Shown here: positions 3,378 to 62,907 of the stretch, piece by piece
Position numbering within the stretch: the first letter of the stretch is position 1
Layout: each line of letters starts with the position of its first letter
Assembly: GCF_041886205.1 (NCBI RefSeq)
Contig: NZ_CP169029.1
Origin: Escherichia coli
GTDB lineage: Bacteria; Pseudomonadota; Gammaproteobacteria; Enterobacterales; Enterobacteriaceae
Reading direction: 5' to 3' (one strand)
DNA length: 64,000 bases
The notes under the pieces: model-generated
Seen by the model: the letters and a program-made list of their open reading frames with translations, nothing else
Database searches by the model: none
What the model was told of the DNA's origin: nothing
Translations under genes and position numbers: made by a program

Positions 3378-5054
3378 ATGCATCACGCCACCCCGCTTAT
3401 CACCACCATTGTTGGCGGCCTTGTGCTCGCCTTTATCCTCGGCATGCTGGCCAATAAACTACGTATTTCTCCTCTGGTGGGATATCTGTTAGCGGGTGTG
3501 CTGGCAGGACCATTCACTCCGGGCTTTGTTGCCGATACCAAGCTTGCCCCGGAACTGGCTGAACTGGGCGTCATTCTGTTGATGTTTGGCGTCGGTTTGC
3601 ACTTTTCGCTGAAGGATTTGATGGCGGTAAAGGCCATCGCCATTCCCGGTGCGATCGCCCAGATAGCCGTGGCGACGCTGCTGGGTATGGCGCTCTCTGC
3701 CGTGCTGGGCTGGTCGTTAATGACCGGTATCGTGTTCGGTTTATGTCTTTCCACCGCCAGTACCGTGGTGTTACTGCGCGCACTTGAAGAACGGCAATTA
3801 ATTGACAGTCAGCGTGGGCAAATCGCCATCGGTTGGTTGATTGTGGAAGACCTGGTAATGGTTCTGACGCTGGTGTTGCTGCCCGCAGTGGCAGGAATGA
3901 TGGAACAGGGCGATGTGGGCTTTGCCACTCTTGCAGTCGATATGGGGATCACCATCGGCAAAGTGATCGCATTTATCGCCATTATGATGCTGGTAGGTCG
4001 CCGTCTGGTGCCGTGGATTATGGCACGCAGCGCGGCAACCGGTTCTCGCGAGCTGTTTACCCTGTCGGTGCTGGCGCTGGCGTTAGGGGTTGCCTTTGGT
4101 GCGGTAGAGCTGTTTGATGTCTCCTTTGCACTCGGTGCGTTCTTTGCCGGGATGGTACTGAACGAGTCTGAACTGAGTCACCGTGCCGCCCACGATACGC
4201 TGCCATTGCGCGACGCGTTTGCGGTGCTGTTTTTTGTCTCCGTCGGGATGTTGTTTGATCCGTTAATTCTGATTCAGCAACCGCTGGCAGTGCTGGCGAC
4301 GCTGGCGATTATTCTGTTTGGTAAGTCGTTAGCCGCATTTTTCCTGGTGCGACTGTTTGGTCACTCCCAACGTACGGCATTAACCATCGCCGCCAGCCTG
4401 GCGCAGATTGGTGAGTTCGCGTTTATCCTGGCGGGACTGGGAATGGCATTGAATTTACTGCCGCAGGCCGGACAAAACCTGGTACTGGCAGGGGCGATCC
4501 TGTCGATTATGCTCAACCCGGTACTGTTCGCACTACTGGAGAAATATCTGGCGAAGACCGAAACGCTGGAAGAGCAGACGCTGGAAGAGGCAATCGAAGA
4601 AGAGAAGCAGATCCCAGTGGATATTTGCAACCATGCGCTACTGGTGGGTTACGGTCGTGTAGGCAGCCTGCTGGGGGAGAAATTGCTCGCCTCTGATATT
4701 CCGCTGGTGGTGATTGAGACGTCACGAACCCGTGTTGATGAGCTGCGAGAGCGCGGGGTCCGCGCAGTATTGGGCAATGCGGCGAACGAAGAAATTATGC
4801 AACTGGCGCATCTGGAATGTGCAAAATGGCTGATCCTGACGATTCCCAACGGTTATGAAGCGGGTGAGATTGTGGCATCTGCCCGCGCGAAAAATCCGGA
4901 TATTGAGATTATTGCCCGCGCCCATTATGACGATGAAGTGGCGTATATCACCGAACGTGGTGCGAATCAGGTAGTGATGGGCGAGCGTGAAATCGCCCGT
5001 ACCATGCTGGAACTGCTGGAAACGCCACCGGCGGGTGAGGTGGTGACGGGGTAA
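3378..5054 (+). CDS. ybaL: CPA2-family cation:proton antiporter with C-terminal TrkA-N (NAD-binding) domain, KefC-like
   Basis: 558-aa ORF; N-terminal multi-TM domain, C-terminal GYGRVG Rossmann motif; matches YbaL length. Confidence 0.93.
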   Translation: MHHATPLITTIVGGLVLAFILGMLANKLRISPLVGYLLAGVLAGPFTPGFVADTKLAPELAELGVILLMFGVGLHFSLKDLMAVKAIAIPGAIAQIAVATLLGMALSAVLGWSLMTGIVFGLCLSTASTVVLLRALEERQLIDSQRGQIAIGWLIVEDLVMVLTLVLLPAVAGMMEQGDVGFATLAVDMGITIGKVIAFIAIMMLVGRRLVPWIMARSAATGSRELFTLSVLALALGVAFGAVELFDVSFALGAFFAGMVLNESELSHRAAHDTLPLRDAFAVLFFVSVGMLFDPLILIQQPLAVLATLAIILFGKSLAAFFLVRLFGHSQRTALTIAASLAQIGEFAFILAGLGMALNLLPQAGQNLVLAGAILSIMLNPVLFALLEKYLAKTETLEEQTLEEAIEEEKQIPVDICNHALLVGYGRVGSLLGEKLLASDIPLVVIETSRTRVDELRERGVRAVLGNAANEEIMQLAHLECAKWLILTIPNGYEAGEIVASARAKNPDIEIIARAHYDDEVAYITERGANQVVMGEREIARTMLELLETPPAGEVVTG

Positions 5055-5059
5055 ACGGT

Positions 5060-5180
5060 GGTTGCCGGATGTAAAATATGAAAAATATGTAGGCATGATA
5101 AGACGCGCCAGCGTCGCATCAGGCATCGAGAGCCAAATGCCAGATGCGGCGTGAACGCCTTATCTGGCCTACGAACCGAC
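5060..5180. repeat. REP/BIME cluster between ybaL and gsk
   Basis: Two or more REP units with the GCCTGATGCGACGC / GCCAGATGCGGCGTGAACGCCTTATCTGGCCTAC motif read directly. Confidence 0.6.
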
Positions 5181-5186
5181 GATAAC

Positions 5187-6491
5187 TTAACGATCCCAGT
5201 AAGACTCTTCCAGGCTGTCTTCACGCTCCGGCAAGCCGCGCGTTAAACGAGGTGAATGCTGGTTCAGTACCTGATAGCTCACACGGTTAGCATATTTACA
5301 CACCTGCGCTAACGATGAATAAGTTAACCAGGTGAATTTATGTTTGCTGGAGTTTGGTACGTTGCTACGATGGTAGCTGTTGGCGGTAATGTCATGCAGC
5401 AACGCTGCCAATGCGCCATCCCCCGCTCCATTAGTGTTCATGATTTTTTCCGGCCCGCCCATGTACGGCGCAATGTGCGAATATACACGCAGCGGATTCT
5501 GGCAATCCTTGTGGCGCATGGCGCGGCTAAACTCATACTGGTTGAATTCCGCTATAGCGCCCGGCAGCAGCGGATGCTGGGTTTTACGTTTCGCTTCGTC
5601 TTCGGTAAAGCCCGCCATATACAAGCCGATTGGCCCTGCAGTGCACAGCACCAGATCAACCCAGTCCAGCGCCTTGTCAGATGCTAACAACGGATCGCTT
5701 TCTCCGGTCAACGCTTCGGCTTCATCTTCGTTCATCGCAAGGATAGAGACGTGGTCTTTGAGGAATTGCTGCCACCACTGCGGATTCTCGGCAATGACAA
5801 ACTTGGTGCCCAGCGTCAGCACCACCGGTACGTTATATTTCTTCGCGTACTCAATGGCTTTCATGGTTGCTTCCGGCATGGGTTCACCCGGCTTGCAACG
5901 CACCAGATAAGAGGTGAGAACCAGTGCCGAGGCTCCGGCAATCACATCTTCCGGAATGCTTTCAGCCCGCAGCTGGTTCATGTGGCCAGGACTGATAGCA
6001 AAGGTACGTTCCCCGGACTCGCCAATCAGCGTAAAGCAACGACCAATCGGACCATCCACGCCTTGTAGATAGTTAAGATCGGTACGGCTGGAGGTGTTAC
6101 ACAGGTAACGATAGGCATAGCTGCCAATTTCAATATTGCTGCACATCACACCCAGCAGCACCGAACGGTCGTCCGCGAGCACCGAGTAGTTGTGCATGGT
6201 GTTGCCAATGGTGCCACCCGCAAACTGATGGGTAATCAGGTTTTTCTGTTTTAGTTCCTGATAAAGCGCTTCGGCTACGTCATCCTCAATCACCAGTGAA
6301 TGCCCGGCGCTTAATCCATAACGCTCAATGAATTCATCATCCACTTTCGCTTCAATATCGACCAGCGTCTGGTCAATACCTACGACCCAGGCGGCGCTGG
6401 TTTCGTTTTCTGGCTGGAATTGCTGAAGCAGCGGATCGCGTGCATTTACAGGGAAGTAATGTTTGGATTTACGTTTACCGGGAAATTTCAT
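5187..6491 (-). CDS. gsk: inosine-guanosine kinase
   Basis: 434-aa ORF recognised as Gsk (PfkB-family sugar kinase); K-12 synteny. Confidence 0.95.
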   Translation of the reverse strand: MKFPGKRKSKHYFPVNARDPLLQQFQPENETSAAWVVGIDQTLVDIEAKVDDEFIERYGLSAGHSLVIEDDVAEALYQELKQKNLITHQFAGGTIGNTMHNYSVLADDRSVLLGVMCSNIEIGSYAYRYLCNTSSRTDLNYLQGVDGPIGRCFTLIGESGERTFAISPGHMNQLRAESIPEDVIAGASALVLTSYLVRCKPGEPMPEATMKAIEYAKKYNVPVVLTLGTKFVIAENPQWWQQFLKDHVSILAMNEDEAEALTGESDPLLASDKALDWVDLVLCTAGPIGLYMAGFTEDEAKRKTQHPLLPGAIAEFNQYEFSRAMRHKDCQNPLRVYSHIAPYMGGPEKIMNTNGAGDGALAALLHDITANSYHRSNVPNSSKHKFTWLTYSSLAQVCKYANRVSYQVLNQHSPRLTRGLPEREDSLEESYWDR

Positions 6492-8561: not shown

Positions 8562-8692
8562 TACCGCCTCTTATCGATTCAACTTGTTGATAATTGTAGC
8601 GGAAAAGTGAAGAAGAAGAACTAATTGCTGTAAGAGGTATTGCCTGAGGAGGATGAGCAGACCTGCCCGAAAGCAGATCTGCTGCGGCTTGA

Positions 8693-12488: not shown

Positions 12489-14420
12489 TCAAATGGGGCG
12501 GATACTTTCTTCATCCAGCTCCGCATCGAAAAACCGACGCAGGGTCTGAATATTATTATCCGCAATAATGGACTCGCGCGCCTGCGCAAGTTTTTCTTCG
12601 TATATCGCCTGACGCCACTCCAGCGGCGTACGCACCGCGGGATTATCATCTTCAACGATAGTCAGTTCAACCGTTGAACCTTTTAACATGCTCAACGCTT
12701 CAGCCAGTTTTTGCTGTGCACCGCGGTTGTTCAAATGCCGCTGAGAGGAGCGCAAATGCAGACATACTGCGTTGTCGCTCTCCTCTTTCCAGGCATTTAA
12801 CGCCACCTGTTCGACCAGTTTTGGTAGCGAAAGTTGGCTCACCTGTGCCGCCCACGGGTCGCGCTCAATGGCTTCTGCCGCCAGCTTCGCCGCCAGTTCC
12901 GGCGTTTTTTCATGTTCCAGCGCTTTTTTCAGCGCCTTCGGCGTGGCGACCACTTCTTTTTGCTGCATCACTGGAGTGGTAGCCTTCCAGCGATACGCTT
13001 CTTTTTTGGCTGGCGCTTTTTCCAGCGCCGATGGCACCGGACGCGCCTGAACGCGATCGGTGACCGAAGCCAGTCTTTCCAGCGCAGCGTTATTCACCGG
13101 CCGCGCGCGGGTAGCGGCTGCCGGTTCACTCTTTTTTGCTTTGGTTGCTCCCTGCACGCGCTGCAACTGCTGGCGCGCCGCCAGCACCTGGCTGGTGGTT
13201 TCCGGGAGCGGTACAGTCGGTGCCTGCTGCGGCGCTGATTGCGGTTGCGGCGGCACCTGGGTTGGCGTCATTACTGCCGTTGGCGCGACGGGCGCAAAGG
13301 ACTGGCGTGGCACTTCTGGCTCAGGCAGAGGCATACGTGGATGGAACGCCAGCGCGCGCAGCAGCGTCATCTCAACGCCCATGCGGCGGTCCGGCGCATA
13401 CGGTAATTCTTTGCGACCAATCAACAGCGTCTGATAGTAAAGCTGAATATCCGTCGGCGGTATGGTGCGCGCCAGTTCACGCATCCGCAGCTCAATGGCG
13501 GCCATGTCGTTGCCAAGTGCAGCAGGCGAAAGTTGTACCATCGCAATACGATGCAACAGGCCGAGCATTTCCACCAGCAACGCTTCCCACTCGATACCAC
13601 GGGCAGCGGCTTCATTAATCAGCGCCATTACGCGCTCGCCGTTGGCCTCGACCATCGCTTCAACCAGCGACAGCGCCTGATCGTCATCAAGCGTACCCAG
13701 CATCGCACTGACTGCCTGGGTTGAAACCTGGCCGTCACCGCTGGCAATCGCCTGGTCGGTCAGACTTAAGGCATCTCGCAGGCTGCCTTCAGCGGCGCGC
13801 GCCAGCAATTGCAACGCCCGCGGCTCGTGAGCGATATGTTCTTCGTTGAGGATGTGCTCAAGTTGATGGCGAATTTGCTCGACATCCAGCGCCTTGAGAT
13901 GAAATTGCAAACAGCGCGACAAAATCGTCACCGGCAATTTCTGTGGATCGGTCGTCGCCAGCAGAAACTTAACGTGCTCCGGCGGCTCTTCAAGGGTTTT
14001 TAACAGTGCGTTAAAGCTGTGGCGCGACAGCATATGCACTTCGTCGATCAGATAAACTTTGAAACGACCACGCGCCGGAGCGTACTGGACGTTATCCAGC
14101 AGGTCGCGGGTATCTTCAACTTTGGTGCGCGAGGCGGCGTCGATTTCAATCAGATCGACAAAGCGCCCCTGCTCGATTTCACGACAGTTATCGCACACGC
14201 CGCACGGCGTCGCGGTAATGCCGGTTTCGCAGTTTAGCCCCTTCGCCAGCAGTCGGGCGATAGAGGTTTTTCCGACGCCACGGGTGCCGGAAAAAAGATA
14301 AGCATGATGAATACGCCCTAACGACAAGCCGTTCGCCAGTGCGGTCAGCACATGTTCCTGGCCGACGACGTCAGCAAAGGTTTGTGGGCGCCATTTTCGG
14401 GCTAAGACCTGATAACTCAT
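12489..14420 (-). CDS. dnaX: DNA polymerase III tau subunit (gamma by programmed frameshift)
   Basis: 643-aa ORF with AAA+ clamp-loader motifs; recognised as DnaX. Confidence 0.96.
   Translation of the reverse strand: MSYQVLARKWRPQTFADVVGQEHVLTALANGLSLGRIHHAYLFSGTRGVGKTSIARLLAKGLNCETGITATPCGVCDNCREIEQGRFVDLIEIDAASRTKVEDTRDLLDNVQYAPARGRFKVYLIDEVHMLSRHSFNALLKTLEEPPEHVKFLLATTDPQKLPVTILSRCLQFHLKALDVEQIRHQLEHILNEEHIAHEPRALQLLARAAEGSLRDALSLTDQAIASGDGQVSTQAVSAMLGTLDDDQALSLVEAMVEANGERVMALINEAAARGIEWEALLVEMLGLLHRIAMVQLSPAALGNDMAAIELRMRELARTIPPTDIQLYYQTLLIGRKELPYAPDRRMGVEMTLLRALAFHPRMPLPEPEVPRQSFAPVAPTAVMTPTQVPPQPQSAPQQAPTVPLPETTSQVLAARQQLQRVQGATKAKKSEPAAATRARPVNNAALERLASVTDRVQARPVPSALEKAPAKKEAYRWKATTPVMQQKEVVATPKALKKALEHEKTPELAAKLAAEAIERDPWAAQVSQLSLPKLVEQVALNAWKEESDNAVCLHLRSSQRHLNNRGAQQKLAEALSMLKGSTVELTIVEDDNPAVRTPLEWRQAIYEEKLAQARESIIADNNIQTLRRFFDAELDEESIRPI
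13131..13137 (-). promoter_or_regulatory. dnaX: dnaX programmed -1 ribosomal frameshift heptamer A AAA AAG (gives gamma subunit)
   Basis: Plus-strand cttttttgc at 13131-13139 is the reverse complement of GCAAAAAAG; encoded ...AKKSEP...; GC-rich stem-loop follows on the mRNA (13101-13128). Confidence 0.8.
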
Positions 14421-16240: not shown

Positions 16241-16402
16241 ATGTCACTTGAAAATGCCCCTGACGATGTCAAACTGGCTGTCGATTTGATTGTGCTGCTG
16301 GAAGAAAATCAGATCCCAGCCCGCACCGTGCTGCGCGCGCTGGATATTGTAAAACGCGATTATGAAAAGAAATTAACGCGCGATGATGAGGCGGAAAAGT
16401 GA
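16241..16402 (+). CDS. ybaM: small uncharacterised protein YbaM (53 aa)
   Basis: Hand-translated [53 protein letters not shown]; below the 60-aa cutoff so absent from the ORF track; position matches K-12 ybaM. Confidence 0.75.
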
Positions 16403-16454
16403 GAAATAAATGGGGCCGCTAAATGTCCCCTAAGATTGTGGGCAAACGCAAAAC

Positions 16455-16553
16455 TGCCTGATGCGCTACGCTTATCAGGCCTACACCGCTCCTGCAATAT
16501 ATTGAATTCTTGCGGTTTCGTAGGCCGGATAAGGCGGTCACGCCGCATCCGGC
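16455..16553. repeat. REP/BIME cluster between ybaM and mscK
   Basis: REP units GCCTGATGCGCTACGCTTATCAGGCCTAC and TAGGCCGGATAAGGCGGTCACGCCGCATCCGGCA read directly. Confidence 0.6.
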
Positions 16554-16613
16554 ATGAACAACGCGCACTTTGTCAGTAATCTCGGGGCAACTAAATGTCG
16601 CCCCCTTTGGTTA

Positions 16614-19600
16614 TTACCCAACCGCTGGTGTCGGATCGTCGCCTTTGTAGTCGCGTTTTACTTCCGTCACCTCATCGCCCTTCTCGTTGTGCAGATGCAC
16701 TTCAAGCTGGTTAAAGGCAATGTTGATGTCGTTTTCACGGCACAGCTGATCGATAGTACGGTTCAGCTCATCGACAGTACGACTACGGTCACGCAGTTCA
16801 CGCACATACAGACGCAGCTCATGATCCAACGTGCTGGCACCAAACGCCGTAAAGAAGACTTCCGGCATTGGTTCGTGCATCACTCTTGGGTGCTCAGTCG
16901 CCGCCTTCAGTAACACTTTACGCACTTTTTCCAGATCGGAGCCATAGGCCACGCCGAGACGGATCACCAGACGCGTAGTAGTGTCAGTCAACGACCAGTT
17001 GATCAGACGCTCGGTAACAAACGCTTTGTTCGGGATGATCACTTCTTTGCGATCGAAATCGGTAATCGTTGTCGCACGAATACGGATCTTACTTACCGTC
17101 CCCGAGAAGCTACCAATGGTTACCGTATCGCCAATACGCACCGGACGTTCGAATAGAATGATCAAACCGGAGACGAAGTTACCGAAAATTTCTTGTAAAC
17201 CAAAACCAAGACCTACGGATAATGCTGCGGCCAGCCACTGGAGTTTATCCCAAGAGACGCCCAGCGATCCGAACACCGTCATCGCACCAACAGCAATAAT
17301 GATGTAGTTAAGGATGGTAGTAATGGCATACGACGCGCCCTGGCGCATATTCAGTCGCGAGAGCACCAGCACTTCCAGTAAACCAGGCAGGTTGCGAATC
17401 AACGCCCAGGCCACCATTGAGGCGATAATCGCAAACAACAGACTGCCCATGGTGACGTTTTTCACCACCGCAGCGCCAGCTTCAGTGCCGTTGTAATGCC
17501 AGAGCGTGATGCTGTCGAGATAGCTGAACACGGTGATCAAATCGGACCAAATTGCCCAGAACATGACACCGAACAGCGCAAACATCAGCAACATGGTAAT
17601 ACGCAGCGTCTGCTGGTTAACTTGCTCCAGTGCAATGGTGGGTTCTTCCGGCGGTTCAGCACCTTCTGCGCCCTCTTTCACCAGATTCTGCCGACGCGCC
17701 AGCGCACGACGCCAGGCGATACGCCGCGCCGCTACGCTTAAGCCACGCAGTACCGTCTGGTACAGCAGGTTCCAGATGATCACCAGATAAACGGTTTCAA
17801 TCCAGCGTCCTGCCAGACGCAGCGTAGTGTAGAAGTAGCCTGTAGCAGTCAGCACCATCAGCGCAATCGGGATTATCGACAGCACGGTAATGGTGACCAG
17901 TCGCATGGTGTGCGACTCTTTATCACGCCAGCTTTCGCGGCACATCGGCCATACCAGGAAGGCAATCAGCAGCAGGTTGAAGAAAATCATCGCTTGCCCC
18001 AGCACATCATCCATCAGATGCAGCGGGGAAAGTTCTGCCACCACAGACCAGAAATGGATAGGCAGCAATGCGAGACTGATGCGGACAATTTGCCGACGCC
18101 AGTGGCTGGTCTGCTGTTCCGGCATGCCGAAGTGACGTACGGCAACGCCGTTTTTCTCCAGTACCTTCCAGCACAGGCCAAACACCAGCCAGAATATCGC
18201 CAGTTTTTTGCTGAACGACCATAGCAGTTCGCTGATGTTGAGCTGCATGGTCAACAGAATCAGGCCAACCGCGAGAATAATCAGGCACACCGGCAGCGCA
18301 CGGATCAGGTCGATAAGGATCGCTTTTGGTGTGTTGAGCTGGCTGTCGTTACGCAGGGAACCCACAGCGGAAGCCAGTTTTTGTTGATACGCTTTCAGCC
18401 AGCCCAGACGCCAGTGGATCAGCCCGGCAATCAACAGCAGCGGCAAACCAGCGAGGAAAGCGATAAAAACGGCGGGCCAGGCTTTTTGCCAGTTCACCGT
18501 GATTTTCATCGACTTAAATTCATCTTTCAGGCTTTGCGGGAACGCTTTGATCCAGTCCCAGTCCATTGGACGGTTACTGTTCACCCAAAAGATTTGCTGA
18601 GTCAGGATGGATTTCAGGTTTTTCGACACACTCATTAACTGCTGCTGGTTGATTTGCAGGTTAATGGCCATCATCAGCTGGTTACCCAACTGTTTGTTGA
18701 GTTGATCCAGCAATTCGCGACGCATATCAACCACTTGCAATAACGCATCGTGAACTTCGCTGTTGACTTCGTTGGTGTGACCTTCTTCCAGTTTGTTGAC
18801 GAACGCATCGCTCTGGAAGAGTGCATCACGCTGCTGGTTAACTTCAAACTGTTCGAGACGCAAATCCGCGATGCGGTTGGTCATGTTTTCCAGTTCATCC
18901 GCCGAGGGCAGCGTTTGTTGTTGCTGGTAAAGGATACGAGACAACAGCAGGCTGCCCTTCAGGACGGCAATCTGCTCTTTAATATTGCGTTCCGATTGCA
19001 GCGCCCGCTCCAGCCAGTTTTTGACTTTAATGTTTTGCTGCATCAACTGATTACCGTTTTCAGTCGCGGTAATCAGACGCTGACTTAACTGCTGGTTAAT
19101 TTCCAGTTCCTGCTTCACCAGCGGATTAGCCTGAATACGCGCGGCTTCATCCGGGGAGACGGCTTCCTGCGCCGTTTTTTCGGTTAAAGTCAGGCGCTTG
19201 CTGTTTACCGCTTCTTGCAACAGTTGTAACTGGTGCTCCAGACGAGCGCTGTTCGCCGTCACGTAATCACGTTGCTTTTGCAAGGTATCCTGCAAGACGG
19301 TGTTCCCTTCCAGGCTTTTACGCTGCTGGTCAATCTCCGCATTCAGCAACGCCTGCTGGGCCTGCATTAACACTTTCTGGCTGGGACGTAAGGCTGTCTC
19401 GCCGACATCAGTCCCATCCAGACGACTGCGAATTTGTTGCAGCTGCTGCGAAGCGTTATACATCGCATTTTGCACGCGTTCGGGCTGCGTCTGTAACGAA
19501 ACCAGCTGGCTGTTATAAGACGCCAGATCGTTTTGTGCGTTTTGCAAATCGTCCAGCGCCTGGGCAACGCGAGTTTCCAGCTGGCGCAACGAAAGCGTGC

Positions 19601-19976
19601 TCAGAATTTTGCGCGTTTCTTCGTCGTTATCGACATCGCTAAGTGCTGTTAACGCCGCGGTCGCCTGGCGCATTTTTTCCGGCGCTTCAGCGACTTTTTG
19701 CCGTAGCTGAACTGTCTCTTCTTTTATGCGATCGATTTTATCGAGGGTGGCTAATGTATCTGTCAGATCCTGCTGCACCAGTTTGTCCTGAGCAGAAAGA
19801 TCTTTTTGTTTATTTAGTGAGTCAAGTTGCGCCTGCAGGTCCGCTTTTGTCGGCAGATCACCATTCGATGACGCCCGCGCAAACGCCGTGTTCTGGCATA
19901 ACAAGACAAAAACAAAAGCAATAAATGCTGAAAAAACAAAATGCCGTGATCGTTTGTAATACTGGAACATAGTCAT
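16614..19976 (-). CDS. mscK: potassium-dependent mechanosensitive channel MscK (KefA)
   Basis: 1120-aa ORF with signal peptide, long coiled-coil periplasmic region and C-terminal MscS-like domain. Confidence 0.95.
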   Translation of the reverse strand: MTMFQYYKRSRHFVFSAFIAFVFVLLCQNTAFARASSNGDLPTKADLQAQLDSLNKQKDLSAQDKLVQQDLTDTLATLDKIDRIKEETVQLRQKVAEAPEKMRQATAALTALSDVDNDEETRKILSTLSLRQLETRVAQALDDLQNAQNDLASYNSQLVSLQTQPERVQNAMYNASQQLQQIRSRLDGTDVGETALRPSQKVLMQAQQALLNAEIDQQRKSLEGNTVLQDTLQKQRDYVTANSARLEHQLQLLQEAVNSKRLTLTEKTAQEAVSPDEAARIQANPLVKQELEINQQLSQRLITATENGNQLMQQNIKVKNWLERALQSERNIKEQIAVLKGSLLLSRILYQQQQTLPSADELENMTNRIADLRLEQFEVNQQRDALFQSDAFVNKLEEGHTNEVNSEVHDALLQVVDMRRELLDQLNKQLGNQLMMAINLQINQQQLMSVSKNLKSILTQQIFWVNSNRPMDWDWIKAFPQSLKDEFKSMKITVNWQKAWPAVFIAFLAGLPLLLIAGLIHWRLGWLKAYQQKLASAVGSLRNDSQLNTPKAILIDLIRALPVCLIILAVGLILLTMQLNISELLWSFSKKLAIFWLVFGLCWKVLEKNGVAVRHFGMPEQQTSHWRRQIVRISLALLPIHFWSVVAELSPLHLMDDVLGQAMIFFNLLLIAFLVWPMCRESWRDKESHTMRLVTITVLSIIPIALMVLTATGYFYTTLRLAGRWIETVYLVIIWNLLYQTVLRGLSVAARRIAWRRALARRQNLVKEGAEGAEPPEEPTIALEQVNQQTLRITMLLMFALFGVMFWAIWSDLITVFSYLDSITLWHYNGTEAGAAVVKNVTMGSLLFAIIASMVAWALIRNLPGLLEVLVLSRLNMRQGASYAITTILNYIIIAVGAMTVFGSLGVSWDKLQWLAAALSVGLGFGLQEIFGNFVSGLIILFERPVRIGDTVTIGSFSGTVSKIRIRATTITDFDRKEVIIPNKAFVTERLINWSLTDTTTRLVIRLGVAYGSDLEKVRKVLLKAATEHPRVMHEPMPEVFFTAFGASTLDHELRLYVRELRDRSRTVDELNRTIDQLCRENDINIAFNQLEVHLHNEKGDEVTEVKRDYKGDDPTPAVG

Positions 19977-25432: not shown

Positions 25433-25447
25433 GGTAATGACTCCAAC

Positions 25448-25951
25448 TTATTGATAGTGTTTTATGTTCAGATAATGCCCGATGACTTTGTCATGCAGCT
25501 CCACCGATTTTGAGAACGACAGCGACTTCCGTCCCAGCCGTGCCAGGTGCTGTCTCAGATTCAGGTTATGCCGCTCAATTCGCTGCGTATATCGCTTGCT
25601 GATTACGTGCAGCTTTCCCTTCAGGCGGGATTCATACAGCGGCCAGCCATCCGTCATCCATATCACCACGTCAAAGGGTGACAGCAGGCTCATAAGACGC
25701 CCCAGCGTCGCCATAGTGCGTTCACCGAATACGTGCGCAACAACCGTCTTCCGGAGCCTGTCATACGCGTAAAACAGCCAGCGCTGGCGCGATTTAGCCC
25801 CGACATAGCCCCACTGTTCGTCCATTTCCGCGCAGACGATGACGTCACTGCCCGGCTGTATGCGCGAGGTTACCGACTGCGGCCTGAGTTTTTTAAATGG
25901 CGGAAAATCGTGTTGAGGCCAACGCCCATAATGCGGGCGGTTGCCCGGCAT
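25448..25951 (-). CDS. insB: IS1 InsB' reading frame (expressed as InsAB' transposase by -1 frameshift at A6C motif)
   Basis: 167-aa frame recognised as IS1 InsB; slippery A AAA AAC motif on the minus strand at about 25887-25896 (plus-strand gttttttaaa). Confidence 0.88.
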
Positions 25952-26145
25952 CCAACGCCATTCATGGCCATATCAATGATTTTCTGGTGCGTACCGGGTT
26001 GAGAAGCGGTGTAAGTGAACTGCAGTTGCCATGTTTTACGGCAGTGAGAGCAGAGATAGCGCTGATGTCCGGCGGTGCTTTTGCCGTTACGCACCACCCC
26101 GTCAGTAGCTGAACAGGAGGGACAGCTGATAGAAACAGAAGCCAC
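25870..26145 (-). CDS. insA: IS1 InsA (transposition inhibitor / N-terminal part of InsAB' transposase)
   Basis: 91-aa [23 protein letters not shown]... zinc-finger/HTH protein, recognised as IS1 InsA. Confidence 0.92.
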
Positions 26146-26200
26146 TGGAGCACCTCAAAAACACCATCATACACTAAATCAGTAAGTTGGCAGCATCACC

Positions 26201-26209
26201 GCGCTAATA
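26201..26209. repeat. IS1 target-site duplication, right copy (GCGCTAATA)
   Basis: 9 bp immediately outside the IS1 end, identical to 25424-25432. Confidence 0.9.
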
Positions 26210-30726: not shown

Positions 30727-30840
30727 GGGTGGGGGCCCTGCCAGCTACATCCCGGCACACGCGTCATCTGCCTTGGCTGCTTCCTTCCGGACCTGACCTG
30801 GTAAACAGAGTAGCGTTGCGGGAGAACCAACAGAGCCCCC
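30727..30840 (-). ncRNA. ffs: 4.5S RNA (signal recognition particle RNA)
   Basis: Plus strand 30727-30840 is the exact reverse complement of the 114-nt E. coli 4.5S RNA as I recall it (GGGGGCUCUGUUGGUUCUCCCGCAACGC...GGCAGGGCCCCCACCC). Confidence 0.95.
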
Positions 30841-42436: not shown

Positions 42437-42487
42437 TTATTCCGGGTGTCGCCGGATGCGGCTTGAGCATCCGGCACCACAAAACGT

Positions 42488-48413: not shown

Positions 48414-48600
48414 AGAGCTCTCTCTTAGTTTAATTTCCGCCAGGTAATCAGATGACACGACTGTGCTTCACGCCATCTATTAACATGTACGTCAGTATAT
48501 GGGGATGTTTCCCCCACATTCAACGCCGAGAATAGAGGAAAAATTAAAGGGGAGATAAAATCCCCCCTTTTTGGTTAACTAATTGTATGGGAATGGTTAA

Positions 48601-60527: not shown

Positions 60528-60544
60528 ATTGTCTGAGATCAGAG

Positions 60545-60563
60545 ATACGGCTAATAACCGTAT
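60545..60563. promoter_or_regulatory. inverted repeat IR-A (ATACGG-N7-CCGTAT), candidate operator upstream of the antitoxin promoter -35
   Basis: Perfect 6-bp arms with 7-bp spacer read directly; same architecture as IR-B 55 bp downstream. Confidence 0.5.
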
Positions 60564-60566
60564 GTC

Positions 60567-60595
60567 TTGACAGAGTGAGCAGATGAACATAAATT
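60567..60595 (+). promoter_or_regulatory. candidate sigma-70 promoter of the antitoxin-toxin operon (-35 TTGACA, 17-bp spacer, -10 TAAATT)
   Basis: Consensus -35 hexamer at 60567-60572 and plausible -10 at 60590-60595, about 75 nt upstream of the antitoxin start. Confidence 0.5.
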
Positions 60596-60599
60596 AATC

Positions 60600-60618
60600 A
60601 TACGGTTGATAGCCGTAT
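60600..60618. promoter_or_regulatory. inverted repeat IR-B (ATACGG-N7-CCGTAT), candidate operator overlapping the predicted transcription start
   Basis: Perfect 6-bp arms with 7-bp spacer just downstream of the -10; contains the spurious ATG of the ORF-track frame at 60606. Confidence 0.5.
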
Positions 60619-60671
60619 TATGTATGAGATCGACTCCCTACGATTTCATTCAGTTAATCAAAGAGGTCATA

Positions 60672-60983
60672 ATGCCTGGAAAAACAGCCACTCTACCCGA
60701 TGTCGATAAAACGCTGAAAAATGCGCGGGTCGAACTCAAAACTAGTCCCGACGCCAAAAACAAACTTCGTGAAGCTGCGCAAGCCGTTGGGGTAGATTTA
60801 AGCGCTTTTATTTTGAGCGCTGCTATGGAACGCGCCGAAAGTGTGCTTGATAACCAACGTCGCCGTGAGCTTTCGAATCAAAGCTGGGAACTGATGAACC
60901 AACTCATCGCTGAACCTGCTCAACCGACGCTCGCCCTCAAGGCGTTAATGAAAAGGAAAAACAGCGATGGTCGACAAGCATGA
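60672..60983 (+). CDS. ribbon-helix-helix (DUF1778-like) antitoxin of a GNAT-type toxin-antitoxin pair
   Basis: 103-aa from MPGKTATLPDVDK, RBS AAAGAGG 6-7 nt upstream; RHH-like N-terminus (RVELKTSPDAKNKLREAAQAVGVDLSAFILSAAMERAESVL) resembling TacA/AtaR/KacA-type antitoxins; overlaps the toxin gene by 17 nt. Confidence 0.8.
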   Translation: MPGKTATLPDVDKTLKNARVELKTSPDAKNKLREAAQAVGVDLSAFILSAAMERAESVLDNQRRRELSNQSWELMNQLIAEPAQPTLALKALMKRKNSDGRQA

Positions 60984-61509
60984 AGAGATTACTCTGCCCA
61001 TAGTCCTCTCCTGTAATTATCAGTCTGATATTACTTATCCTGGGCAAAAACAGTTTGATTGCGGTAACCCTGTTATCGATAAATTTGTACGCGCATCGCT
61101 AAAGAAAAGTGTGCGTAATAGCGACTGTGCGGCTAAAGCACTTATTGACAGACAAAGTGGTGAACTGATCGGCATCTGTACTTTTACGGCATATTCGCTG
61201 GAAAAACAACGCGTTTCTGGCGTCCTTCAGGGTTCACAACCTTCAGAAATTGGTGTTGTCAGATTAGTCATGTTGGGGGTAGCACGGAAGTATCAAAAGC
61301 GGGGCTTTGGTCAGGACCTACTATGTGATTTTTTTGAACATGTAAAAATAATTCACCAGGCATTACCAATTAAAGGGGTTTATCTTGATGCTGACCCTGC
61401 CGCCATTAATTTTTATGCTCGTCTCGGCTTTGTTCAGCTTTCAGCGACACCAAATGCTTTTGGTGCTGTACCTATGTTTTTGGCGATTCAGCATATTCTC
61501 GCGGCTTAG
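60967..61509 (+). CDS. GNAT-family acetyltransferase toxin (TacT/AtaT/ItaT/KacT-like, probable aminoacyl-tRNA acetyltransferase)
   Basis: 180-aa ORF with acetyl-CoA-binding motif A (VRLVMLGVARKYQKRGFG), motif B (AINFYARLGF) and N-terminal FDCGNPVIDKFV typical of GNAT toxins; immediately downstream of and overlapping an RHH antitoxin. Confidence 0.85.
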   Translation: MVDKHEEITLPIVLSCNYQSDITYPGQKQFDCGNPVIDKFVRASLKKSVRNSDCAAKALIDRQSGELIGICTFTAYSLEKQRVSGVLQGSQPSEIGVVRLVMLGVARKYQKRGFGQDLLCDFFEHVKIIHQALPIKGVYLDADPAAINFYARLGFVQLSATPNAFGAVPMFLAIQHILAA

Positions 61510-61564
61510 ATTATTATCGCCACCCGCCAGGGCAAGTTTTGCCTCAGCCGGGGGCTGAGCAGCG

Positions 61565-62500
61565 TTACCACTTTTGTTCAATTGCCCCCGCTTTCAGCAA
61601 CTCCACATCCTTGCCGTTAATGGTTGCCGTTGCGGCAACGATTGTGGTCCTTACAGTTGCACAAGATTTTCGCTCAAATTCCGGTTTATAAAGAATAAGA
61701 GACGAATTACTGGTAAATGAACCAAATAGGTAATCAGTAAAGCTAATATTCAGCCGGTTTAAACCGAAAGGCGCGAAGCCAACCGTTTGGTTAATCTCCT
61801 TACCGGATGGGCGACGAATGCTGAATGTCACGCGAAGGTTGGCCACTTCGCCTAATTTATTGGTGGTGGCGAAGAGGCTATCCATGCAGGAAAAACCTTC
61901 ATCTAAAAAATTATCCCGCATCCCAGAACGGGTAACCGTGATCACGGGTAACGTATCGTCAACCGTTTTTCTGTCAATCATGTCTTTTCGACAAGTAGCC
62001 AGAAAGTCTTCCGGGCCACCATAAATGTGGACACCTTTATCAAGATATTCCTTCGCTTTCTTACAATCTACCTCAACATACTGACCATTGGCGTACATCA
62101 TGCCCAACCTGGACCATGCTAAATTCACACCGTATTGCGCGGCCTGATTAAATAGCGCATACGCTTTGGCATAATCCACCCGCACCTGCTCGCCGTCGTA
62201 GTAGATACTCCCCAGCGCTAACGGTGCTTCTCTGTCACCGTGTTTAGCGGCTAACTCGAACCATTTAATCGCTTCCTGAACATCAGGTTTGGTATCATAG
62301 CGAGGCTGATAATATTCCCAGCCTAACAGGCTCTGCGCGTCGGCACCCCCCGATTCAGCCATTTTATGCAGTGTATTTATAACATTGGGCGCAGGTTTAC
62401 CACCGTATATGCTGTCATACAATTCATGTGCTTTCTCGCTTGCCACCACGCCTGGTGAAACTATTAGCATTAAAGAAAATAGTATTCTTTTAGTTAACAT
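61565..62500 (-). CDS. secreted Sel1-like repeat (TPR-like) protein with uncharacterised C-terminal domain of about 150 aa
   Basis: 311-aa from MLTKRILFSLMLIVSPGVVASE (Sec signal peptide, AAAGG RBS upstream); about three Sel1-like repeats (e.g. AIKWFELAAKHGDREAPLALGSIYYDG, YAKAYALFNQAAQYGVNLAWSRLGMMYANGQ); C-terminal half not recognised; the ORF-track start at 62560 is probably over-extended. Confidence 0.8.
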   Translation of the reverse strand: MLTKRILFSLMLIVSPGVVASEKAHELYDSIYGGKPAPNVINTLHKMAESGGADAQSLLGWEYYQPRYDTKPDVQEAIKWFELAAKHGDREAPLALGSIYYDGEQVRVDYAKAYALFNQAAQYGVNLAWSRLGMMYANGQYVEVDCKKAKEYLDKGVHIYGGPEDFLATCRKDMIDRKTVDDTLPVITVTRSGMRDNFLDEGFSCMDSLFATTNKLGEVANLRVTFSIRRPSGKEINQTVGFAPFGLNRLNISFTDYLFGSFTSNSSLILYKPEFERKSCATVRTTIVAATATINGKDVELLKAGAIEQKW

Positions 62501-62907
62501 GTATACCTTTATGTTCTCTCTGTCATATATTTCCATAATAATTAACCACCAAACATCCATTTAATGAATAAATACAGTGCCATAAAGGCCCAAGTAATAA
62601 GCACACATTTAACCTGAAACATTATCATCGATGTCACCAAATCGTTTATTTAGTGAGATAAAAATAGCATGTTCGTAAGATAAAAAATGCACATAGCAAT
62701 CAAGAAATAATATTATTACTTTTGATGTAAAACTATTTAGCTTTAAGATTCATTTTTTTCAACATATAGAGCATTCATTTTATGAATGCAAAATAAACAT
62801 ACCTGACACACAAACTATTCTCCTCTGTAATATTTTCTCATTAACACTCTGTTTACCCAACATGCGCTCCGCACTACACTATGTGGGCATTTTTTTAAGG
62901 GGTGGTA

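Follow-up and report, generated by a model that had tools for sequence, protein, structure and literature searches.

REP doublets in two convergent-gene spacers of Escherichia coli: a single BIME-2-type unit at ybaL-gsk and a BIME-1 (REP43) at rsmS-mscK, with natural IS621 insertions at both sites in other genomes

Two spacers between convergent genes in a 64-kb stretch of an Escherichia coli chromosome (the window, meaning that whole stretch) carry REP doublets (BIMEs), i.e., standard enterobacterial extragenic palindromes, an identification that is virtually certain. Typed on sequence, the element of the ybaL-gsk spacer (locus 1) is one Y-S-Z2 BIME-2-type unit, and that of the ybaM/rsmS-mscK spacer (locus 2) is a BIME-1, REP43 of K-12, composed of Z1-L-Y and short family flanks. 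In other genomes, both REP pairs are natural landing sites of IS621. As a package, the identity of the elements together with the working proposed for them below is considered highly probable. REPs as a class have been studied since 1984, and both loci are already known, catalogued K-12 repeats (REP43 and its neighbour). The initial annotation had described the two clusters as ordinary for E. coli, a description that fits a catalogued class whose REP pairs are here unchanged from K-12. The present analysis adds the precise typing of both elements, a broader extent of the family unit at locus 2, direct evidence that both are natural IS621 landing sites and a description of their presence/absence alleles.

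The window is a chromosome segment collinear with approximately 442 to 506 kb of K-12 MG1655, in reverse orientation, with an identity of 98.5 to 99.4% in the segments compared and of approximately 99% overall. The genes ybaL and gsk converge on a spacer of 132 bp, and ybaM (now rsmS) and mscK converge on one of 211 bp. The ORF map, the comparison with K-12 and a REP scan agree that REP-family palindromes occupy both of these convergent spacers, as the initial annotation had proposed, and all four REPs lie between stop codons and are extragenic (Table 1). Two larger segments of the window are absent from K-12. One, at 25433-26201, is an IS1 copy of approximately 768 bp with InsA and InsB verified through Pfam; it separates the 3' end of acrB from the tomB-hha operon. 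A 2.37-kb insert (60530-62901) between cyoE and yajR encodes a TacA-like antitoxin (60606-60983), a GNAT acetyltransferase (60967-61509) that overlaps the antitoxin ORF and may be a TacT-type toxin, and, on the minus strand, a Sel1-repeat protein (61565-62560).

Table 1. Genes, repeats and other features at the two convergent spacers (window coordinates)
Feature	Position	Strand	Sequence	Basis or remark
ybaL	3378-5054	+		ORF map and K-12 annotation
REP-head fragment, 10 nt	5062-5071	+	TTGCCGGATG	Sequence reading
One-base variant of IS621 target, tail of REP A	5089-5099	-	ATCATGCCTAC	Definition in PMC11208160
REP A, long Z-type (Z2)	5089-5124	-	GCCTGATGCGACGCTGGCGCGTCTTATCATGCCTAC	Consensus scans and alignment
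Rfam RF02564 (naRNA4) match, Y-linker-Z2	5092-5169	-		Covariance model; gsk-sense strand
Linker between REP A and REP B, 14 nt	5125-5138	.		Sequence reading; head-to-head, short S-type
REP B, Y-type with compensatory A-T stem pair	5139-5172	+	GCCAGATGCGGCGTGAACGCCTTATCTGGCCTAC	Scan and alignment
gsk	5187-6491	-		ORF map and K-12 annotation; stop codon 5187-5189
ybaM (now rsmS)	16241-16402	+		ORF map and K-12 annotation
Hairpin-like single-copy segment	16412-16430	+	GGGGCCGCTAAATGTCCCC	Direct repeat of 16584-16602
Left family flank of BIME-1	16443-16454	+	CAAACGCAAAAC	Common to paralogues at fruA-psuK and nagD-asnB
REP C, short Z-type (Z1)	16456-16484	+	GCCTGATGCGCTACGCTTATCAGGCCTAC	Scan and alignment
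Exact IS621 target with CT core, tail of REP C	16474-16484	+	ATCAGGCCTAC	Definition in PMC11208160
L linker, 35 nt	16485-16519	.		Sequence reading; tail-to-tail
IHF-consensus-like site in L linker	16495-16507	-	ATTCAATATATTG	Sequence reading; 12/13 against WATCAANNNNTTR
REP D, Y-type	16520-16553	-	GCCGGATGCGGCGTGACCGCCTTATCCGGCCTAC	Scan and alignment
Right family flank of BIME-1	16555-16568	+	TGAACAACGCGCAC	Common to paralogous BIME-1 copies
Hairpin	16584-16604	+	GGGGCAACTAAATGTCGCCCC	9 nt downstream of mscK stop codon on mscK transcript
mscK	16614-19976	-		ORF map and K-12 annotation

REPs were sought over the whole 64-kb window with a head motif (GCCKGATGCG) and a tail motif (TTATCMGGCCTAC) separated by a loop of free length, and membership was judged on the same head with the tail CTTATCMGGCCTAC, which includes the GTAG/CTAC tetranucleotide. 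Exactly four full REPs were found, two per locus, against 0.02 expected by chance, as estimated by resampling the window 100 times under a first-order Markov model. The Stern consensus at fixed spacing, with up to three mismatches allowed, gave no match in shuffles and recovered REP A alone; it misses the other three because loop lengths differ among Y, Z1 and Z2 forms, and, having caught one REP in four, it was dropped as a detector in favor of the head/tail scan. Stem-loops with the REP head motif that are not full REPs occur at 21-45 (GCCGGATGCAAACATCCGGC) and 42451-42475 (GCCGGATGCGGCTTGAGCATCCGGC).

The four window REPs were aligned formally with three published reference REPs and with the REPs beside rayT of K-12, and every one of them aligned to a Y, Z1 or Z2 reference, which settles the consensus check proposed for the initial annotation in its favor. 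REP A matches the long Z reference at 35 of 36 positions and is identical to the Z2 upstream of K-12 rayT; REP C matches the short Z reference throughout (29/29); and the two Y-type elements match the Y reference at 32 of 35 (REP B, including a compensatory change of a G-C to an A-T stem pair) and 33 of 35 positions (REP D). No variation among window REPs and references was seen at head positions GCC-GATGCG, in the tail CTTATC or in the foot CCTAC. A tail G that is otherwise nearly invariant is replaced by T in REP A, as it is in the Z2s flanking rayT. The positions that form the stem mismatch (GATGCG against CTTATC) are likewise invariant, and the window REPs are thus imperfect-palindrome hairpins with the conserved two-base stem mismatch. 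Against shuffles, the folds were far more stable, with z-scores of -6.4 and -6.7 (locus 1) and -3.5 and -4.5 (locus 2). Used as queries, the window REPs found a median of 10 to 19 matching places per E. coli genome, as is characteristic of a high-copy repeat. The long Z form was assigned to Z2, since it is the form found in the rayT-flanking BIME-2s of K-12 and in the Rfam naRNA4 consensus; an assignment of long Z to Z1 and short Z to Z2 was reversed on the same two grounds.

The arrangement of the REPs differs from that described in the initial annotation, which had called them tandem: they are inverted doublets, head-to-head at locus 1 and tail-to-tail at locus 2. BIME-1 elements combine z1 and y REPs in single copy around a long conserved L linker, often with an IHF site, and BIME-2 elements combine z2 and y REPs with a short linker, usually in tandem arrays (Ton-Hoang et al., PMC3333891).

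At locus 1, the pair spans 5089-5172 and consists of a Z2 and a Y joined by a short linker, as in BIME-2. Multiple tandem copies and s, l or r flanks, which also characterize BIME-2, are absent from locus 1, and the AT-rich sequence to the left of the Z2 does not resemble the 17-nt linker that joins REPs tail-to-tail in the rayT BIME-2s. Being a lone unit that has none of the s, l or r flanks, the element is best called a single BIME-2-type unit or an atypical BIME. The interval originally assigned to this REP cluster, 5060-5180, does contain the pair, but its first 29 nt hold just the 10-nt REP-head fragment, which is possibly a REP remnant or a product of chance. In the alternative ybaL-gsk allele carried by 568 genomes, a complete REP opens with these same 10 nt. 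REP B ends 14 nt from the gsk stop codon, or 17 nt if the count runs to the base at which pairing begins in the Y hairpin. The naRNA4 covariance model matches locus 1 on the minus strand over its full length (model positions 1 to 77 of 77) with 74.3 bits, against a gathering score of 59.5, and scores 51.6 bits on the opposite strand. Elsewhere in the window, Rfam matches above the gathering score were sraA (48485-48580, plus strand), the dnaX frameshift element (13092-13156, minus strand) and 4.5S (SRP) RNA (30736-30832, minus strand), all of which are expected in a K-12-like region.

Locus 2 holds one Z1 and one Y in inverse orientation and in single copy, with a long, well-conserved L linker of 35 nt, as in BIME-1. 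Pair and linker together cover about 16455-16554, and the initial coordinates of this cluster (16455-16553) were good: K-12 REP43 (489960-490057; the name comes from a preprint supplement) maps to 16455-16552 of the window. The K-12 RefSeq record that was examined carries no annotated repeat feature for either spacer. An E. coli genome has a median of 16 places with the tail-L-tail segment. In the paralogues, the linker core CCTGCAATATATTGAATT is invariant, and the copies at fruA-psuK and nagD-asnB can be aligned with locus 2 over the full element. Similarity to the paralogues continues beyond the REP pair for 12 nt on the left and 14 nt on the right, and the BIME-1 family unit therefore extends over about 16443-16568; beyond it, the outer flanks are locus specific and single copy in the genome. 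The naRNA4 model stayed below its gathering score at locus 2, where the local match of the Y half in REP D reached 35.4 bits, and Rfam hits to ES036 and Ysr224, far under their gathering scores, were disregarded.

The BIME-1 is flanked by a 19-nt direct repeat with 84% identity between copies 172 nt apart, a score reached in 1 of 2,000 shuffles. The downstream copy lies in the hairpin at 16584-16604, which folds on the minus strand with -16.9 kcal/mol (z, -2.2). A reading of the direct repeats as the target-site duplication of a mobile element of approximately 170 bp was set aside as unsupported as a family property, given that the outer flanks are single copy and only 12 to 14 nt per side recur in the paralogues. 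In Escherichia sp. E1V33 (L025:1590-1830), the two BIME-1 flanks form a 45-nt inverted repeat (0 of 2,000 shuffles), so that the whole spacer there is an extended quasi-palindrome; in the window, the corresponding 45-nt inverted repeat is not significant in the shuffle test.

IS621 has an 11-nt natural target with a CT core that is read by a bridge RNA and is found mostly in REPs (Durrant et al., PMC11208160). The tails of both Z-type REPs carry this target, exactly in REP C and with one base changed in REP A, and these REPs are thus natural landing sites of IS621. In strain EC01, a 1,279-bp IS621 interrupts the locus 2 orthologue between ATCAGGC-CT on one side and CT-AC on the other, and the same junction is present in 173 of 5,426 genomes. 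At locus 1, strain GPEC856 has IS621 between GTAG and GCATGAT, corresponding to the target ATCATGC-CT-AC, and 36 genomes share this junction. The 11-nt target is therefore in natural use, with insertions at both orthologous REPs, and the potential for IS targeting raised in the initial annotation is realized in orthologues of REP C (173 genomes) and REP A (36). In the window itself, IS621 is absent from these two sites.

A comparison with K-12 was also proposed in the initial annotation, and it revealed the same REP copy number and REP sequence at both loci. Window and K-12 agree at 132 of 132 bases in the ybaL-gsk spacer, and the rsmS-mscK spacers differ by eight substitutions, all of them in the flanks, with no difference in the BIME. 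Among 5,426 complete E. coli genomes, over which all population counts were taken, the window-type spacer at locus 1 is present in 4,658, and a different, 83-bp spacer with one REP in plus orientation is present in 568 (approximately 10%); 36 genomes have IS621 in REP A. The locus-specific flanks of locus 2 were found in 4,058 genomes, 3,880 of which have the intact 211-bp spacer, and 173 genomes have IS621 in REP C. A BIME-less spacer of 38 bp with one hairpin and no REP, accompanied by an altered RsmS C terminus, occupies the same position in 1,365 genomes (approximately 25%), including O157:H7. Both elements are thus naturally dispensable, with 1,365 of 5,426 genomes BIME-less at rsmS-mscK and 568 reduced to a single REP at ybaL-gsk.

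The divergent patch of the BIME-less allele extends only from approximately rsmS codon 44 to the mscK stop codon. RsmS of the window and of K-12 has the 53-aa form (C terminus at 16370-16402), the form linked to the BIME-less spacer has 54 aa and ends in KKLQSDEASQSE (L006:371-406), and RsmS of other Escherichia species ends in TRDDEA(Q/K)SEK. Removal of the 172 nt between the 19-nt repeats would leave 39 bp, one base more than the BIME-less spacer of 38 bp. It is conceivable, although improbable, that two long-lived rsmS-mscK haplotypes, the 211-bp BIME-1 form and the 38-bp one-hairpin form with its different RsmS C terminus, are kept by selection as the BIME alters 3'-end formation and mutual antisense read-through. 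If true, the haplotype pair would offer a natural setting in which to test REP-mediated tuning of convergent genes, and the 19-nt direct repeats around the insert would point to the way in which the short form was generated.

E. albertii, E. whittamii and two other Escherichia species also have a BIME-1 at the corresponding site of the rsmS-mscK spacer, and the element therefore predates E. coli. Window and E. albertii share 98% identity in the BIME-1 core, compared with 81 to 86% in its flanks and 90 to 94% in nearby coding DNA, a pattern that could result from constraint or from concerted evolution of REP copies. The Y REP is decaying in E. whittamii. In a divergent lineage, the E. coli-like strain E69 (L015:2900-3100), a boxC-like G/C-rich palindromic repeat replaces BIME-1 between the same hairpin-like flanks, and small repeats of different kinds seem to have landed repeatedly in the rsmS-mscK spacer. 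Another presence/absence polymorphism of small repeats is found in the adk-hemH spacer (8638-8692), where K-12 has 157 bp with the boxC-like repeat CCCCTCACCCTAACCCTCTCCCCGAGGGGGCGAGGGG and the window instead has 53 bp with the hairpin GCAGACCTGCCCGAAAGCAGATCTGC.

For the function of these elements, a role in the 3' untranslated regions, as terminators and stabilizers at these particular loci, is somewhat favored by comparison with characterized REPs. Both converging transcripts would read into the palindromes at each locus. The G+C-rich REP hairpins, which are devoid of a U-tract, would pause RNA polymerase and aid Rho-dependent termination just beyond, and they may then halt 3'-to-5' exonucleases, giving stable 3' ends to the transcripts of gsk and ybaL and of mscK and rsmS. 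Rho-dependent transcripts end at stable hairpins without U-tracts that block PNPase and RNase II, and REPs are among these hairpins (Dar and Sorek). A 2026 preprint lists REP43 among the REPs with an overlapping Rho-binding region determined in vitro, here 490047-490172 on the mscK-sense strand and immediately beyond the BIME. The same preprint describes REP325 as a dual element, a partial Rho-dependent terminator and a stabilizer, and reports higher expression of convergent pairs with a REP genome-wide; it also describes effects of REPs on half-life as context dependent, with terminal REPs not generally tied to longer half-lives. A REP within 15 nt of a stop codon stalls terminating ribosomes, according to a rule as quoted in a citing paper (PMC12306157), and REP B, 14 nt past the gsk stop codon, would lie at the edge of this window of up to 15 nt.

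At the DNA level, roles of IHF at locus 2 and of gyrase at locus 1, both suggested in the initial annotation, are inferred from the element types. The L linker of locus 2 is of the BIME-1 motif type that binds IHF and might do so here, with the 12/13 consensus match on its own being weak evidence. The Y REP of locus 1 is of the type that gyrase prefers and could attract it; gyrase cleaves the BIME-2 class, and strong gyrase sites are multi-unit BIME-2s. As to their origin, the REPs would be non-autonomous elements handled by the RAYT/TnpA-REP transposase.

Alternatively, the REPs might be selfish or neutral passengers (REPIN/BIME), spread and homogenized by RAYT and gene conversion and useless to the flanking genes here, which is possible but rather unlikely. 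Presence/absence and copy-number polymorphism within E. coli would be expected of passengers, and so would the tolerance of IS621 disruption (173 genomes at locus 2 and 36 at locus 1), the boxC-like repeat in place of BIME-1 in the E69 lineage, the decay of the Y REP in E. whittamii and the activity of RAYT on BIMEs in vitro (PMC3333891). The persistence of BIME-1 at one site since before the split of E. coli and E. albertii, with a core that has diverged less than its flanks and the nearby coding DNA, is less easily reconciled with uselessness, although concerted evolution could mimic it; the overlap of REP43 with a Rho-binding region in vitro and the higher expression of REP-bearing convergent pairs genome-wide also argue for a function. 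The palindromes might also be intrinsic, Rho-independent bidirectional terminators of the convergent pairs, which is quite unlikely. Their hairpins are strong on both strands, a U-rich run (AUAUUUUUCAUAUUUU, 5088-5073) follows the REP pair by 4 nt on the gsk strand, and the preprint places approximately 40% of the REPs between convergent genes inside predicted bidirectional terminators. However, a terminator consensus scan found no intrinsic-terminator pattern (hairpin plus T-run) in either spacer, U-tracts do not directly follow the REP stems, most REPs have no poly-U tract according to the literature, and REP43 coincides with a region bound by Rho.

The full-length RF02564 match above the gathering score and the original report of naRNA4 (PMC4550694) raise the further question of whether locus 1 is a naRNA4-type small RNA gene, whose Y-Z2 transcript would condense the nucleoid together with HU. 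This is very improbable. The Rfam family represents one BIME-2 unit, so that any Y-linker-Z2 doublet would match it, and no promoter-like site was detected in either spacer, the sole one in the scan of 4900-5350 falling within the ybaL coding sequence. In addition, the 2026 preprint, which has an author in common with the original report, saw neither compaction of the nucleoid nor a stable HU-RNA-DNA complex nor contacts between REPs. Because the nucleoid role is contradicted by this later work, the match at 5092-5169 should be annotated as one BIME-2 unit and not as an sRNA gene. A negligible probability attaches to the idea that the palindromes are due to chance or that the short ORFs across them are real genes. 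ORFs of 47 to 134 aa do cross both spacers, but the number of REP matches expected by chance is close to zero, the sequences recur at 10 to 19 places per genome, and the ORFs consist of REP sequence and the antisense of ybaL, gsk, rsmS or mscK. None of the spacer-crossing ORFs has a Pfam match, whereas RsmS matches DUF2496, and none is annotated in the RefSeq records examined at the two loci, six of which cover rsmS-mscK. The suggestion in the initial annotation that REPs explain spurious ORFs applies to 16360-16548 (minus strand), which starts in REP D and traverses the BIME, but only marginally to 16554-16913 (plus strand), for which the edge of the REP supplies just the ATG and the remainder is mscK antisense. 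Short ORFs across these spacers should therefore not be called genes.

Both sites are predictable landing pads for IS621 and places of structural variation from strain to strain, which can confuse assembly and typing, and their presence/absence alleles are ready natural controls for the effects of REPs on convergent genes.

Compared with known systems, locus 2 is like the BIME-1 elements (also RIP or RIB) in being a single Z1-L-Y unit at the 3' ends of genes, with no difference of substance. Locus 1 resembles BIME-2 and naRNA4 (the REP325 repeat) in its Y and long Z2, joined head-to-head by a 14-nt linker. Linkers of the same length join the head-to-head REPs of the rayT-flanking BIME-2s, but their sequence differs from that at locus 1, and the linker sequence of REP325 is also unlike it. 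Furthermore, BIME-2s typically form tandem arrays, whereas locus 1 is one unit with a compensatory A-T pair in its Y REP; strong gyrase sites are likewise multi-unit, which counts against a gyrase role at this single unit. With respect to the IS621 target sites described in REPs (Choi 2003; Durrant 2024), the target is exact in REP C, the CT core is used in orthologues of both Z-type REPs, and the target in REP A has G replaced by T at position 5, in contrast to the position-4 variant discussed by Durrant et al. (PMC11208160).
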